DNA from: a virus
Taxonomy: Duplodnaviria; Heunggongvirae; Uroviricota; Caudoviricetes
Reading direction: 5' to 3' (one strand)
DNA: 23,152 nt
IMG/VR virus record: IMGVR_UViG_2974563859_000001
Part shown: one piece after another, positions 3,963-20,491 of the stretch
Numbering within the stretch: the first letter of the stretch is position 1
Layout: each line of letters begins with the position of its first letter
Translations under genes and position numbers: made by a program
Notes under the pieces: model-generated
Databases searched by the model: none
Told to the model about the DNA's origin: nothing
The model's input: the letters and a program-made list of their open reading frames with translations, nothing else

Positions 3963-4151
3963 CTATTCAGTTATTAATTGTCCAAGATTATCAACTATAT
4001 AAGTAGCAAATGGTCCAATATCATACAATTCATCTTCCATATCATTTAGTTCTCCGATAAATTCGCTATTGCTATCATCATCTAATTCTACAAAATCAAA
4101 ACTAATTTCATCAATACCATCAAGTAGTTCTTTGACCTCCGCTTTGCTCAT
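3963..4151 (-). CDS. small highly acidic protein, candidate DNA mimic (weak Ugi-like pattern)
   Basis: 62 aa, 19 D/E versus 2 K; perfect SD AAGGAGG; PFATYIVDNLGQ resembles Ugi PWALVIQDSNGE. ORF is solid, function speculative. Confidence 0.7.
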   Translation of the reverse strand: MSKAEVKELLDGIDEISFDFVELDDDSNSEFIGELNDMEDELYDIGPFATYIVDNLGQLITE

Positions 4152-4226: not shown

Positions 4227-4272
4227 AAAAAAGAAAAAAAAAATTCACCTGAACTAGTTTATGCAGGTGAAT
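4227..4272 (-). terminator. intrinsic terminator for the 4285-4998 gene
   Basis: Stem ATTCACCTG (4243-4251) / CAGGTGAAT (4264-4272) next to a long A-run (U-tract on the minus strand). Confidence 0.75.
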
Positions 4273-4284
4273 CTCTAAGATGTC

Positions 4285-4998
4285 TTATGTTAGTTTAGTT
4301 AGTAGGATTCTAAATCCATTTACACTAACAGGGGAATATTGAATACTAGTTATATTTTTATCTGGAAATTGGTTTCTTATATAACTCTCAGTTTCTTCAT
4401 TTTCAGGTATAGCAAAATAATCCAAAATGGAGTTATCACTATTTTCAAATGTTATAAAAGCACCATATAATTTATACTCAAATCCTTCTATTCCATGAGT
4501 TTTCTTATATTCAGTAATTATCTTATCGGATATTCCCATTGTTTCTAAAGCAGTTAATATCATTTTTTCAGAAAGATCACCAAGTTTATCAATACTCTTT
4601 AATCTTTTCTTACTCATATAATCTATTAATTTACTTAGATTATCTAAACCATTCCGTCTTAATAAGTTAAACGTTCTTAAATCTAGTAAATCTTTATCAA
4701 TTTGATATGTTAAATTTTTCTTTCTTTTACCTTCTTGTATTTCTTCATTTTTACATTTTTCAAATGCTGTCCATACTAACTGATTTACTCTTGCTGATGA
4801 TAGATTTACGATCTGTCCTACTTCTTCATTAGAAAGTATTCTATCTCCACCAAATTTTATAATTACTGTCTGTAATTCATTATTCGTAATCACATCTTTG
4901 TTTCTTTTAAAGAATTTAATTACATCCTCTAATTCATAATTGATTCCAAAGTATTCTATTATTTCCTTGTCAATATTTCTTCTCTCTTTTCGTACCAA
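4285..4998 (-). CDS. sigma-70 region 4 HTH fused to an RNA polymerase alpha-CTD-like domain
   Basis: aa ~37-83 ITNNELQTVIIKFG..SNEEVG..LSSARVNQLVWTAFEK parallels sigma4 (LTAREAKVLRMRFG..TLEEVG..VTRERIRQIEAKALRK); aa ~100-155 LDLRTFNLLRRNGL..LKSIDKLGDLSEKMI parallels alpha-CTD; TTG start with SD AAAGGAG. Confidence 0.75.
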   Translation of the reverse strand: MVRKERRNIDKEIIEYFGINYELEDVIKFFKRNKDVITNNELQTVIIKFGGDRILSNEEVGQIVNLSSARVNQLVWTAFEKCKNEEIQEGKRKKNLTYQIDKDLLDLRTFNLLRRNGLDNLSKLIDYMSKKRLKSIDKLGDLSEKMILTALETMGISDKIITEYKKTHGIEGFEYKLYGAFITFENSDNSILDYFAIPENEETESYIRNQFPDKNITSIQYSPVSVNGFRILLTKLT

Positions 4999-5026
4999 TG
5001 ACTTTCTCTCCTTTCACTCTTTCTCA

Positions 5027-5039
5027 TATATAATATATA
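5027..5039 (-). promoter_or_regulatory. putative early (virion RNAP) promoter motif TATATATTATATA
   Basis: Identical 13-mer recurs at 20476-20488, in both cases upstream of minus-strand non-structural genes; contains TATATTAT, similar to the phiKZ early core TATATTAC. Confidence 0.5.
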
Positions 5040-5066
5040 CTTAGTTTTATATTTTAATACGGTACA

Positions 5067-5104: not shown

Positions 5105-5707
5105 ATGTATGATTATTCTACTAGAAACCTAAGTTTTATTAAGATCTGGAAGTTTCTAAAAGATCAAGGTATAAAAAATAATAAATTCTTTTTAAAATTG
5201 AATGATGAAACATTACAAGGTGTTGATCCATATGATCCAAATTTAACTGATGAACAAAAGGTAAGAATACAGGTTGAAGTAATGACTAACTTTTGGTATT
5301 TCTTGAGGGAAGTAGTGCGAATTCCTGAATCGGGTGGTTCTATTCATTTCATGCTACACAGAGCTAATCTTGGTCAAATGTTTCTTATGGAAAATAATAT
5401 TGATATGATTGAGATACTACCTCGTCAGAATGGAAAAACAATTGGGGCTGTATGTCGATATATATGGGTATATCATTGGGCTACCAAAAATACTCATATG
5501 ATTTTTAGTAATAAACAATACGCCGATTCCCAATTAAATATTAAACGTTTCAATGATATAACAGAATTATTACCAAGTTATTTAAAAACGCATTTAGATC
5601 CTAAAAAAGATACAAATAACTTAGCTCAAATTTCATGTGCAAAGAATAATAATAAAATTGATGCAATGAGTACTGCTAGGACTGTTACTGACGCTGACAA
5701 ACTGGGT
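5105..5707 (+). CDS. terL: terL exon 1 (N-terminal ATPase, Walker A)
   Basis: PRQNGKT; reading frame stops at the TAA that forms the first three bases of intron 1. Confidence 0.9.
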
Positions 5708-8306
5708 TAACTAACTATGGCTCAGTATAAACTCCTTTAATTTCTGGAACGTCCTTCCAAGGATAATCAGAAGCTAAGACTTTTAAAAGTAAAGTTCAAC
5801 GACTATCGAAACCGACTTATCAGATCGTTGTGATAACGCTAGATAGGGATAAGGGAGTAGAGTAGAATACAAGCTATAGGTATTCAAAAAGGGGAGCGCC
5901 GTATTTAGGTGAAGATATAGTCTCATCTCTATGGTAACATAGAGCAGTTCATAAGAGAACGGTATAGGCGTAGCGAACCTATATGAAGGTAACTTGCGTG
6001 GTTGTACAGTACCAATTATATGGTTAAATTTTTAGCCCATTATAATAGTGATATTATAATGAATCCTTCTTAACTGCTGGAACATCCTTTTAGGACAATC
6101 AGCATCCAAGCATTGTTATATAAATAACAATGAAGGTTCAACGACTATCGAAACCGACTTATCAGATCGTTGTGATAATGCTAGATAAGGATAAGGGAGT
6201 AGAGTACAACTCAAGCGATTGGAGTTGGAAATGGAAGGCATCTCAATGAGATGAAGATATAGTCTCATCTTCATGGTAACATGGAGCAGTTCATAAGAGA
6301 ACGGTATAGGCGTAGCGAATCTATATGAAGATAAATGATGATGAATTTGCATTTTTAAAATATAATGATACGGTATACGCTAAACTGGTGTAACTGGCGT
6401 ATTAAAACTCTCTTAACTGCTGGAAACTCCTAAAGTCTTTAGTACCAAAGTGTAATAATCTAAAGGATATATGGACAATCAGCATCCAAGCATTGTTATA
6501 AATAACAATGAAGGTTCAACGACTATCGAAAAATATAATTTGTATTATATTGAGTAGAGTACTTTCAAGCGAAAGGAAAAGGAGAGCATGATGAAGGTAT
6601 TAAATACTGGAGTGAAGATATAGTCTCATCTCTATGGAAACATAGAGCAGTTCATAAGAGAACGCATTAGACGTAGCGAATCTAATGGAAGGTAATTATG
6701 AGTGCTGCACCAGCACTATCAAAAGCATCAGAAGCCGCACAGCGTAATGGTACTCCTTACGGAAAATTAATTACAACAACTCCTAAACTATTGGGCAATA
6801 CATTAGTAATAATGTAATTGAATCTTCCTTAATTGCTGGAAAATCCTATATGGACAATCAGCATCCAAGCATTGTTGTTTATAACAATGAAGGTTCAACG
6901 ACTATCGAAACCACTCTAACAGATCGTTGTGATAACGCTAGTTAGAAGGAAGGGAGTAGAGTACAACCTAAGTGATTGAGGTTGGAAAAGGGAAGCATCT
7001 CAATGAGATGAAGATATAGTCTCATCTTCATGGTAACATGGAGCAGTTCATAAGAGAACGCATTAGATGTAGCGAATCTAATGGAAGATAAATGAATGAT
7101 CTTGATACAGAAATGGGTAAATATTGTAAGGGTATGATTGATGATGCATGTCCATTTGATGAAGCTTGGTATGATTGGGATATTGATGAAATTAAAAAAT
7201 ATATTGAACAGAACTCTCGAAATGACTTTGTTTATTTAGTATTTAATTATAAAGAGTTAGGACATGATGAGAAATGGTATCAAAAACAATGTCGTCAGCT
7301 CAATAATGACTTATTAAAAATTAAACGTGAAATATTATTGGAATGGACATTGGCTAACGATACTTCGCCTTTTTCAGAGGAACAATTAGCAGAAATTGGA
7401 CAACATGCAGGTGAACCTATTGGTAAGTTTTATGTAATGAAAAGATATAAATTTGAAATTTTCAGTGAAATGCGAAATATATTTAAAAAATCATGGCTAA
7501 TCGGTATAGATATTGGAGCAGGTTTGAATCGAGATTTTACAGTGATATCTATTATTGATCCTAAAGATATGGTTCAAAAAGCAGTATTTAGAAGTAATAA
7601 TATATCTTTACCTGATTTAAAAGATTTGGTTATACACCTAGTATTAGAATTTTGTCCTAATGGTGTCATTATTCCAGAACGAAATAACTTAGGTATCTCT
7701 TTAATACAAGATCTACTACGTTCAGAAGTAGCTAATAACTTATATTATGAAGTTAGAGAAGTAAAAGGAGAAAAGAAAGTTGATGATCCAAAAAGATCAT
7801 CTAAAAAGACAGTTAAGACTAAAACAAGAGTTTATGGGGTTACTACTAGTAAAGATAGTCGGGATATAATGATCAATGAGATTCTTAGTAATGCAGTTAA
7901 TGATACTCCATATGTGTTTACAAGTAAATATATTTTTGAAGAATTAAGAACATTAGAAAGAAATAAGAAAGGAAAGATTGAGCATAGGGATGGAGGTCAT
8001 GATGATACATTATTCTCATGGCTAGTGGCATGCTATGCTTTCTTATATGGAAATAATATAAATAAATTTGTTAAAGTCATCAGTGATGGCGATAATAATG
8101 AGAATGAAGAAAATAATAAAGATAGAGCTAGAAACATTCATGCATTGTCTAAAATTAATAGTGGTGAAAAATCACAGAGTGAAATATTATTAGAAATGTA
8201 TAAGAATGAAAGTAGATTTTTTGAAGATCATAATGAGAATGATAATAATATTAGAAAGCAAAAAAGAATGAAAAGCCTAAATTTTATTACTAGTTTAAAT
8301 AGATAA
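5105..8306 (+). CDS. terL: terminase large subunit, spliced from 5 exons: join(5105..5707,5997..6024,6338..6381,6701..6784,7095..8306), 656 aa
   Basis: Exon lengths 603+28+44+84+1212 = 1971 nt, in frame. Spliced protein: Walker A PRQNGKT, junction region KLG|RGCTVPIIW(Y)DEFAFLKYNDTVYA|SAAPALSKA..LITTTP|NDLD, nuclease motifs GIDIGAG and HDDTLFS. Confidence 0.92.
5708..5996 (+). mobile_element. group I intron 1 of terL (IA-like, no ORF, 289 nt)
   Basis: 5' splice after U; P1 ACTGGGT/GCTCAGT(5720-5726) with terminal U-G; P10 TAACTATG(5712-5719) pairs exon 2; core TTCAACGACTA and GAAGATATAGTC (P7 GACTA/TAGTC); GTAA tetraloop hairpin; ends in G. Confidence 0.93.
5997..6024 (+). CDS. terL: terL micro-exon 2 (28 nt; RGCTVPIIW plus 1 nt)
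   Basis: Supplies the hydrophobic strand preceding the Walker B acidic pair. Confidence 0.85.
6025..6337 (+). mobile_element. group I intron 2 of terL (IA-like, no ORF, 313 nt, phase 1)
   Basis: Core elements TTAACTGCTGGAA, AATCAGCA, TTCAACGACTA, GAAGATATAGTC; imperfect P1 with GCCCATTATAAT; terminal G; removal creates the Tyr codon T|AT of WYDEF. Confidence 0.93.
6338..6381 (+). CDS. terL: terL micro-exon 3 (44 nt; Walker B DEFAFLKYNDTVYA)
   Basis: Encodes the catalytic DE of Walker B. Confidence 0.85.
6382..6700 (+). mobile_element. group I intron 3 of terL (IA-like, no ORF, 319 nt)
   Basis: P1 ATACGCT/GGCGTAT with U-G; CTGGTG pairs CACCAG in exon 4; same core elements; GAAA tetraloop hairpin; terminal G 6700. 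Confidence 0.93.
6701..6784 (+). CDS. terL: terL micro-exon 4 (84 nt; SAAPALSKASEAAQRNGTPYGKLITTTP)
   Basis: Ends with the motif III (coupling) sequence TTTP. Confidence 0.85.
6785..7094 (+). mobile_element. group I intron 4 of terL (IA-like, no ORF, 310 nt)
   Basis: Core TTAATTGCTGGAA, AATCAGCA, TTCAACGACTA, GAAGATATAGTC; short guide TATTGGG; terminal G 7094; in-frame join TTTP|NDLD. Confidence 0.92.
7095..8306 (+). CDS. terL: terL exon 5 (ATPase lid and RNase H-like nuclease domain)
   Basis: GIDIGAG..DFT, ERNNLG, HDDTLFS; the track's ATG at 7092 is the last three bases of intron 4. Confidence 0.9.
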   Translation, partial: NDLDTEMGKYCKGMIDDACPFDEAWYDWDIDEIKKYIEQNSRNDFVYLVFNYKELGHDEKWYQKQCRQLNNDLLKIKREILLEWTLANDTSPFSEEQLAEIGQHAGEPIGKFYVMKRYKFEIFSEMRNIFKKSWLIGIDIGAGLNRDFTVISIIDPKDMVQKAVFRSNNISLPDLKDLVIHLVLEFCPNGVIIPERNNLGISLIQDLLRSEVANNLYYEVREVKGEKKVDDPKRSSKKTVKTKTRVYGVTTSKDSRDIMINEILSNAVNDTPYVFTSKYIFEELRTLERNKKGKIEHRDGGHDDTLFSWLVACYAFLYGNNINKFVKVISDGDNNENEENNKDRARNIHALSKINSGEKSQSEILLEMYKNESRFFEDHNENDNNIRKQKRMKSLNFITSLNR

Positions 8307-20475: not shown

Positions 20476-20488
20476 TATATAATATATA
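20476..20488 (-). promoter_or_regulatory. putative early promoter motif TATATATTATATA (second copy)
   Basis: Identical to 5027-5039; lies just past a terminator and upstream of the polymerase gene. Confidence 0.5.
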
Positions 20489-20491
20489 TTT

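Follow-up and report, generated by a model that had tools for sequence, protein, structure and literature searches.

AR9 gp120, a pre-early protein with sigma region 4-like and alpha-CTD-like domains, as a candidate accessory modulator of host transcription

Known phage inhibitors of host transcription include gp67, which disrupts the contact between alpha-CTD and the UP element (PMC4495994), and T4 AsiA, which mimics sigma region 4 (sigma-4) at the beta flap tip, whose helix sigma-4 itself binds (PMC6755090). AR9, a jumbo phage of Bacillus with RNA polymerases of its own, has been reported to encode no alpha or sigma homologue (PMC5312081, PMC5449584), and its g120 is one of eight "pre-early" genes, a class that the AR9 authors left unexplained (PMC5312081). 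During AR9 infection of B. subtilis 168 in LB, host mRNA falls about two-fold and 34 host genes change (PMC5312081), so any effect of gp120 on the host is expected to be modest or conditional; these 34 genes have no common regulator, and no Spx or ComA regulon signature was found among them. Here, we describe gp120 as a protein that joins a sigma-4-like domain to an alpha-CTD-like domain. This qualifies the statement that AR9 is without alpha or sigma homologues, which is true for whole subunits but not for domains.

The window, by which we mean the whole 23,152-nt stretch analyzed (IMG/VR record IMGVR_UViG_2974563859_000001), comes from a Takahashivirus jumbo phage, as read from its head, tail and replication genes (major head, terminase, sheath, tube, portal, and DNA polymerase). 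The protein encoded at g120 is 100% identical to AR9 A0A172JI21 (gp120), 99% identical to gp303 of Internexus, which served as the whole-genome proxy for the window, and 84% identical to Goe21 gp136; the published g120 primer falls inside the reading frame (Table 1). AR9 annotation calls it "hypothetical", and its PHROGs family, PHROG_28674, is labeled "RNA polymerase". Translation starts at a TTG codon with AAAGGAG 9 nt upstream. The original prediction had given the gene an early promoter and a terminator of its own, and both hold. The 51 bases upstream of window position 5025 are those of the mapped AR9 promoter P120, the 27-nt leader is equal too, and the promoter combines an AR9 early core of the AAATATATATTAT type with a mapped start site and a transcript at 5 min. 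The terminator (9-bp stem, 12-nt loop, 10 U; -15.4 kcal/mol, z -4.7) was missed by a simple terminator scan because of its loop length. A scan for host sigma70-type promoters returned 11 sites against 9.1 expected, that is, no signal. In published RNA-seq, g120 stands at 313, 237, and 167 FPKM at 5, 20, and 40 min, with its peak at 5 min.

Two features flank g120. On one side, g119 (3963-4151, minus strand) encodes an acidic protein of 62 aa and is strongly late (77/330/10726 FPKM); the annotated uracil-glycosylase inhibitor of AR9 is g104, located elsewhere, and not g119. On the other, the terminase large-subunit gene (5105-8306, plus strand) carries four closely spaced group I introns and is uninterrupted in Goe21 and BpSp.

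Table 1. Features of the g120 locus, with the introns of the adjacent terminase gene and the fusion paralogues of the more distant AR9-like phage G005; positions are those of the window unless a contig (L173, L175) is named.
Feature	Position	Strand	Basis or remark
g120 open reading frame, 237 aa (AR9 gp120, UniProt A0A172JI21)	4285..4998	-	identity 100%, primer match
N-terminal helix aa 9-17, with IIEYFG aa 13-18	4948..4974	-	second model
Sigma region 4-like domain aa 23-88 (profile match aa 34-84)	4735..4932	-	profiles, model
Start of recognition helix, SSARVNQ aa 67-73	4780..4800	-	sequence, alignment
Basic linker aa 85-99, replacing the sigma C-terminal helix	4702..4746	-	alignment, model
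Alpha-CTD-like domain aa 100-156	4531..4701	-	profiles, alignment, model
C-terminal region aa 161-237	4288..4518	-	model, shared with P0004
Ribosome-binding site AAAGGAG	5008..5014	-	sequence
Transcription start (G), 27 nt before start codon	5025	-	P120, PMC5312081 Table S2; sequence identical
Early (virion-polymerase) promoter core AAGTATATATTAT	5030..5042	-	mapped P120
Upstream box CCGTATT, G 18 nt before core	5056..5062	-	common to pre-early promoters
Intrinsic terminator, stem 4264-4272 with 4243-4251, 12-nt loop, U tract	4234..4272	-	hairpin fold
Group I introns	5698-5944, 6016-6286, 6367-6647, 6774-7043	+	inside terminase large-subunit gene
G005 fusion paralogue	L173 1081-1677	+	32% identical to the other paralogue, N-terminal YPENL, boxed early-type promoter
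G005 fusion paralogue	L175 1450-2064	-	32% identical to the other paralogue, N-terminal YPENL, boxed early-type promoter

Profile searches recover both domains. Taken alone, gp120 scores below both Pfam cut-offs, with 15.7 bits against 24.1 (gathering cut-off) for Sigma70_r4 (PF04545; aa 55-83, E 0.011) and 15.3 bits against 23.8 for RNA_pol_A_CTD (PF03118; aa 91-152, E 0.017). The Sigma70_r4 score rises to 21.1 bits in the Goe21 protein and passes the cut-off in P0004, an orthologue only 27% identical (42.8 bits, E 4e-11), which also matches RNA_pol_A_CTD with an E of 1.7e-4. Searched against the PDB, a profile made from the three orthologues alone matched SigA region 4 with its residues 34-84 (E 4e-6 to 1e-5), alpha-CTD with residues 95-157 (E 4e-5), and little besides. 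A first structural model, built on three alignment rows (pLDDT 60), resolved sigma-4 alone and superimposed on the sigma-4 structure 1ku3 with a Foldseek probability of 1.0 and an rmsd of 1.1 over 54 residues. The three-orthologue profile and this model bear out the helix-turn-helix proposed earlier: the region 4.1/4.2 fold is present and the region 4.1 pattern is intact. Sigma region 2 gave no match in gp120, where 33 residues precede region 4.

What the domain would recognize appears to have changed. As originally read from the letters, the TRERIRQ of the recognition helix is SSARVNQ in gp120; equivalents of T583, R586, and Q589 are retained as S, R, and Q, whereas those of R584, E585, and R588 are lost. 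S68 and A69 occupy the -35 base-reading positions R584/E585, which is not the arrangement of a functional primary sigma, and the alignment further gives N for R588, T for K593 (T77), and E for R596 (E80). In all five AR9-like copies examined, the R584 equivalent is lost (S, S, Y, G, T) and R586/Q589 are kept. Residues S67, R70, Q73, and K48 align with Taq T408, R411, Q414, and R387, a set that touches the non-template strand between -38 and -35 (R411 and Q414 among them) and the backbone (R387); Taq R409, at the position of S68, reads the -31' G (PMC1540707). R70, Q73, and K48 are invariant across the three orthologues, at 27% identity. The equivalents of R70 and Q73 in SigA touch the -35 thymine methyl, and activators touch a basic patch of sigma-4 made up of K593, R596, and their neighbors. 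The C-terminal sigma helix (host ...LKDFLD) is replaced in gp120 by the basic linker EIQEGKRKKN, which aligns with the Firmicute alpha inter-domain linker.

The alpha-CTD-like helix-hairpin-helix domain is likewise upheld, by the three-orthologue profile and by a match to the rpoA profile TIGR02027 (E 6e-6, aa 78-156) that covers only positions 216-293 of 298 and thus leaves out the alpha N-terminal domain. In a second model (pLDDT 82), the best alpha-CTD match is that of B. subtilis (1z3e_B; Z 7.9, rmsd 2.4, 66 residues), a result that is partly circular because alpha-CTD-like rows were part of the input alignment. Four of the six residues of the UP-element determinant are kept (R108, N111, G140, and S143 for R265, N268, G296, and S299), including the R265/N268 pair originally read as kept, and two are lost (N294 to K138, K298 to L142). 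The prediction had further stated that LGKKS reads LGDLS; LGDLS does stand at aa 139-143, with D141 and L142 at two basic alpha positions (K297/K298), but the motif of the B. subtilis host is LGRKS. R108, N111, and G140 are invariant across the three orthologues at 27% identity, and R108 and G140 align with B. subtilis alpha R261 and G292, where substitution proved impossible in vivo (PMC4495994). F110 and R114 align with Y263 and K267, the Spx and ComA contacts of B. subtilis alpha (PMC2801614); P0004 has C and R there, and the position of C265 is L. As judged from these alignments, gp120 keeps the fold and the backbone contacts of both modules while -35 reading and the flap-side helix are lost, and its activator surfaces seem partly kept but not conserved among orthologues. 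The retention of R70, Q73, R108, N111, and G140 is weak evidence, since these residues are conserved in most proteins of these folds, and DNA binding may be weak because much of the basic DNA-facing surface is gone.

Beyond the alpha-CTD-like domain, the second model predicts a helix and then a small beta-beta-alpha-beta domain (about aa 175-223), a domain present in P0004 too; searched within the whole protein, it gave no Pfam, Atlas, or structure match. At the other end, IIEYFG (aa 13-18) reads VSDFFGE in P0004 and has, by eye only, a likeness to the beta flap-tip helix. Mimicry of the flap tip was set aside: a profile of the motif returned no RpoB from the PDB, and, scored for the YPxNL-type motif of several fusion members, this end of the protein did not rise above shuffles (p 0.29 and 0.09).

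Fusion of sigma-4 to alpha-CTD is, on the sequence matches gathered here, a recurrent, large, and mostly phage-borne architecture that is not particular to AR9. ESM Atlas clusters carrying PF04545 and PF03118 have 54-179 members and are 75-100% viral; examples are P0012, P0013, P0016, P0017, and P0024, further members were found by profile search, and a profile of other fusion members finds both domains in gp120. In the literature searched, outside which lies the original 2016 AR9 genome paper, we found no characterized member. P0004, the only distant full-length orthologue of gp120 found among 1.84 billion representatives, belongs to a related phage that has Ugi and whose head protein is 77% identical; its gene is on a 260-kb contig, at a locus different from that of g120. 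Scans of viral and metagenome contigs and a word search from P0004 added no others. P0004 aligns colinearly over both domains with one of two fusion copies (E 9e-8, linkers differing) in the more distant AR9-like phage G005 (head protein 41%). No fusion gene was detected in the complete genomes BpSp, G001, G002, and G006, in which very divergent copies could escape, nor was one found in LPJP1, SA1, or MarsHill; phiR1-37 gave a marginal partial match in a 91-codon frame. Across the AR9-like clade, then, g120 is dispensable.

Some neighbors of this family deserve mention. Two g120 copies, P0003 and L049 1118-1584, carry frameshifts within A-runs, the former after aa 132 and the latter after aa 94; both are on short contigs, one filed under B. 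subtilis, and may reflect read errors or real knock-outs. The 320-kb contig G006, which has an AR9-like head protein, encodes at L181 958-1716 a sigma70-like protein of 253 aa, parts of which resemble regions 2 and 4, in a phage group said to encode no sigma factor. A search for Ugi, as a pointer to uracil DNA, in G001, G002, G005, and G006 found nothing.

The timing of g120 may be explained by a promoter element. The box CGTAT(T/C), with its G exactly 18 nt before the core, occurs in nine promoters of the published AR9 table. In Internexus, it stands at 18 nt in nine promoters and at 17 nt in two, including the equivalent of P292 (the AR9 table is without the upstream part of P292); the background is 0.0003 per position. 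All eight pre-early genes lie behind boxed promoters, directly or in the same operon (operons inferred from gene order). For genes that come first after a boxed promoter, the median ratio of expression at 20 min to that at 5 min is 0.88 (n=9), compared with 4.57 (n=27) for the unboxed (p 9e-5; p 0.008 for promoters above 200 FPKM only). The CGTATY box therefore marks AR9 pre-early promoters and offers a sequence explanation for this class; no description of it was found in the AR9 literature searched (again with the original 2016 genome paper outside the search). The box occurs 5-10 times, at the same spacing, in each of BpSp, G001, G002, G005, and G006, and is thus found in the window, Internexus, Goe21, L003, and these five, with or without g120; a reversed control pattern had no match, and two Staphylococcus jumbo phages searched are without the box. 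It keeps a constant spacing in no fewer than six AR9-like jumbo phages and implies a second promoter element near -35, read by a conserved factor that is probably the virion polymerase or else a conserved partner. Box-plus-core combinations at 17-nt spacing were also seen in LPJP1 (143772, 200449) and phiR1-37 (179869, 186116), where they may be chance or a remnant of the class, and the early core of g132 (DNA polymerase; 20479-20491, minus strand) is without a box. Both promoters of the published chloramphenicol test, P087 and P104, are unboxed as well.

The box precedes the genes for gp120, P0004, and both G005 copies, so that all four gene lineages (AR9/Internexus/Goe21, L003, and the two G005 paralogues) have a boxed promoter of their own, compared with about one-quarter of AR9 early promoters. 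The simpler reading is that the fusion gene has repeatedly been placed in the earliest promoter class.

Comparison with Goe21 indicates that g120 is under purifying selection, stronger on the two N-terminal domains (dN/dS 0.17 for sigma-4, 0.11 for alpha-CTD, and 0.55 for the C-terminal part). Its synonymous distance to Goe21 is 0.40, against 0.01-0.06 in six neighboring genes, and divergence is 13-20% within window positions ~4300-4900 (Goe21 L002 8001-8711) but 0-1% in the flanks. By this sequence pattern, g120 in Goe21 is an exchanged, divergent functional allele within otherwise near-identical genomes, and such exchange is, we infer, common in host-interaction genes.

Every AR9-like copy sits behind a boxed promoter, which suggests that gp120 is wanted at once; as it is needed at once, is not needed by the phage polymerases, and is built from host upstream-promoter modules, it acts most likely on the host, where mild interference with transcription is probable. 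A host-directed accessory protein would fit the pre-early timing, the patchy distribution, and the allele swap. We therefore favor, tentatively and with less than even confidence, a reading in which gp120 is an accessory, loosely specific binder of A/T-rich host upstream-promoter DNA. Produced at the very start of infection as a host-directed accessory modulator of transcription, gp120 would work alone, without polymerase, setting the helix-turn-helix into the major groove and the alpha-CTD against the A/T-rich minor groove next to it, as both modules sit on a host promoter. DNA would be contacted through the backbone and the upstream edge rather than by reading TTGACA; at promoters that rely on a UP element or an activator, gp120 might then be a weak competitor of host holoenzyme and activators, and the C-terminal domain may add oligomerization or a partner. 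The original prediction was of a decoy of the two promoter-upstream modules of host polymerase. This idea is supported in part, docking on the flap and blocking of -35 elements being its least likely forms.

A protein decoy working off DNA, in which helix 1 of the alpha-CTD would titrate Spx, ComA, and the like and sigma-4 would titrate sigma-4-binding proteins, is the next candidate and on balance unlikely. The eroded DNA-facing charges, the identity of helix 1 (aa 105-114) between AR9 and Goe21, the placement of F110 and R114 where B. subtilis alpha meets Spx (Y263) and ComA (K267) (PMC2801614), and the structural match to the B. subtilis domain (Z 7.9, from the model that included alpha-CTD-like rows) all speak for it. 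The Spx contact, however, is not conserved, because P0004 has C at the Y263 position; that protein keeps only a basic residue, R, at K267, and the C265 position reads L. The sigma-4 basic patch that activators would touch reads T77 and E80, and the 34 changed host genes carry no Spx or ComA regulon signature.

Quite unlikely, in our estimate, is a feedback repressor that would occupy the CGTATY box together with the A-tract beside it and turn off the pre-early promoters, its own included, after the first minutes. Boxed promoters do stop rising after 5 min (0.88 vs 4.57, p 9e-5), the box lies roughly where sigma-4 and alpha-CTD sit on a promoter, and all four gene lineages are boxed against about one-quarter of AR9 early promoters. 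Yet membership in the pre-early class explains this association without autoregulation, and the two main base-reading positions change from copy to copy (SA, SS, YT, GE, TG) although the box never varies. The box is also probably not a gp120 operator because it is found in relatives without the gene: the four complete genomes BpSp, G001, G002, and G006 have 5-10 boxed promoters each and no detectable fusion gene, which weakened this candidate.

The further readings are improbable. In the first, gp120 would be a host-selective promoter blocker. Since it keeps R70 and Q73 at the upstream edge of the major groove, it could in this reading cover the thymine-containing, A/T-rich upstream DNA of the host and ignore the uracil-containing phage genome. 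Blocking through the -35 sequence itself is unlikely, as neither of the two main base readers is left. We give an equally low probability to gp120 docking on RNA polymerase, either at the host flap tip or on a phage polymerase, where it would take the place of sigma-4 or alpha. The sigma-4 fold with its intact region 4.1 pattern, the flap-tip binding of sigma-4 that T4 AsiA mimics (PMC6755090), the PHROG_28674 label "RNA polymerase", and the fact that no virion polymerase was purified in the 2017 AR9 paper leave room for it. Occupation of the beta-flap tip, another form proposed originally, is made unlikely by the replacement of the helix that helps to form the flap-binding surface (...LKDFLD to EIQEGKRKKN, a basic linker), and gp120 has neither a region 2 nor an alpha N-terminal domain. 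Purified nvRNAP has five subunits, none of them gp120 (PMC5449584), the listed virion proteins do not include gp120, whose gene is early rather than late, and most relatives that share the polymerase strategy are missing the gene. Absent from purified nvRNAP and from BpSp, G001, G002, G006, LPJP1, and SA1, gp120 is no core polymerase subunit.

There is a similarly slim chance that the C-terminal domain is the effector, acting for example against a defense system or host protein, with the polymerase-derived domains merely targeting DNA or transcription complexes. The domain and its secondary-structure pattern are kept in P0004 at 27% identity, are absent from the other fusion members examined, and show the most relaxed or diversifying signal (dN/dS 0.55), but no family or fold match suggests an activity, the two N-terminal domains are under stronger purifying selection, and the G005 paralogues share the timing and architecture without a C-terminal domain. 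Finally, that gp120 is a leftover of the fusion family, in decay and without any function today, is hardly credible: its Pfam scores are below cut-off, the gene is lost from several relatives, and two frameshifted copies (P0003, L049) are on record, but both domains have dN/dS of 0.11-0.17, promoter, ribosome site, and terminator are intact, a full-length 27% orthologue exists at another locus behind the same promoter class, and the frameshifts, which lie within A-runs on short contigs, could be errors of the reads.

Returning to the accessory DNA binder that we favor, its modules can be set beside their bacterial sources. Primary sigma region 4 (B. subtilis/S. aureus SigA, Taq SigA; 1ku3, 4g6d) has the same fold, region 4.1 pattern, and R586/Q589 equivalents, but gp120 lacks the equivalents of R584, E585, R588, K593, and R596 as well as the C-terminal helix, and it is unattached to regions 2-3. 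With Firmicute alpha-CTD (1z3e, 3gfk), it shares the fold, the R265/N268/G296/S299 equivalents, an aromatic residue at Y263, and a preceding linker-like segment, and it differs in K for N294, LGDLS for LGRKS, and the loss of most of the acidic 261 determinant. The whole RNAP alpha subunit has an N-terminal assembly domain that gp120 is without.

Its closest relatives are the stand-alone sigma-4/alpha-CTD fusions, which have the same two domains in the same order and likewise no region 2 and no alpha N-terminal domain. Typical members keep (T/S)xERIRQ and NLGRK, have a linker of 50-100 residues, stop after the alpha-CTD, and often begin with a YPxNL motif; gp120 has a worn recognition helix, a 15-residue linker, an extra C-terminal domain, and, in the model, an N-terminal helix. 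By these sequence features, gp120 is a worn variant of an unstudied fusion family. It is an atypical member, but its phage is a cultured model whose host is tractable, its promoter has been mapped, and its timing is known, which makes the function of the family directly testable.

Among described phage proteins, gp67 of S. aureus phage G1, T4 AsiA/MotA and Alt/ModA, phiKMV Rac, and SPO1 Gp33 are likewise early and aimed at the upstream-promoter machinery. Most such inhibitors come from phages dependent on host polymerase, and we know of none that is built from copies of both modules. Were gp120 a host-selective blocker, it would be the functional counterpart of T4 Alc, assembled from pieces of sigma and alpha. 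The known inhibitors bind or modify the host modules, whereas gp120 is built from copies of them.
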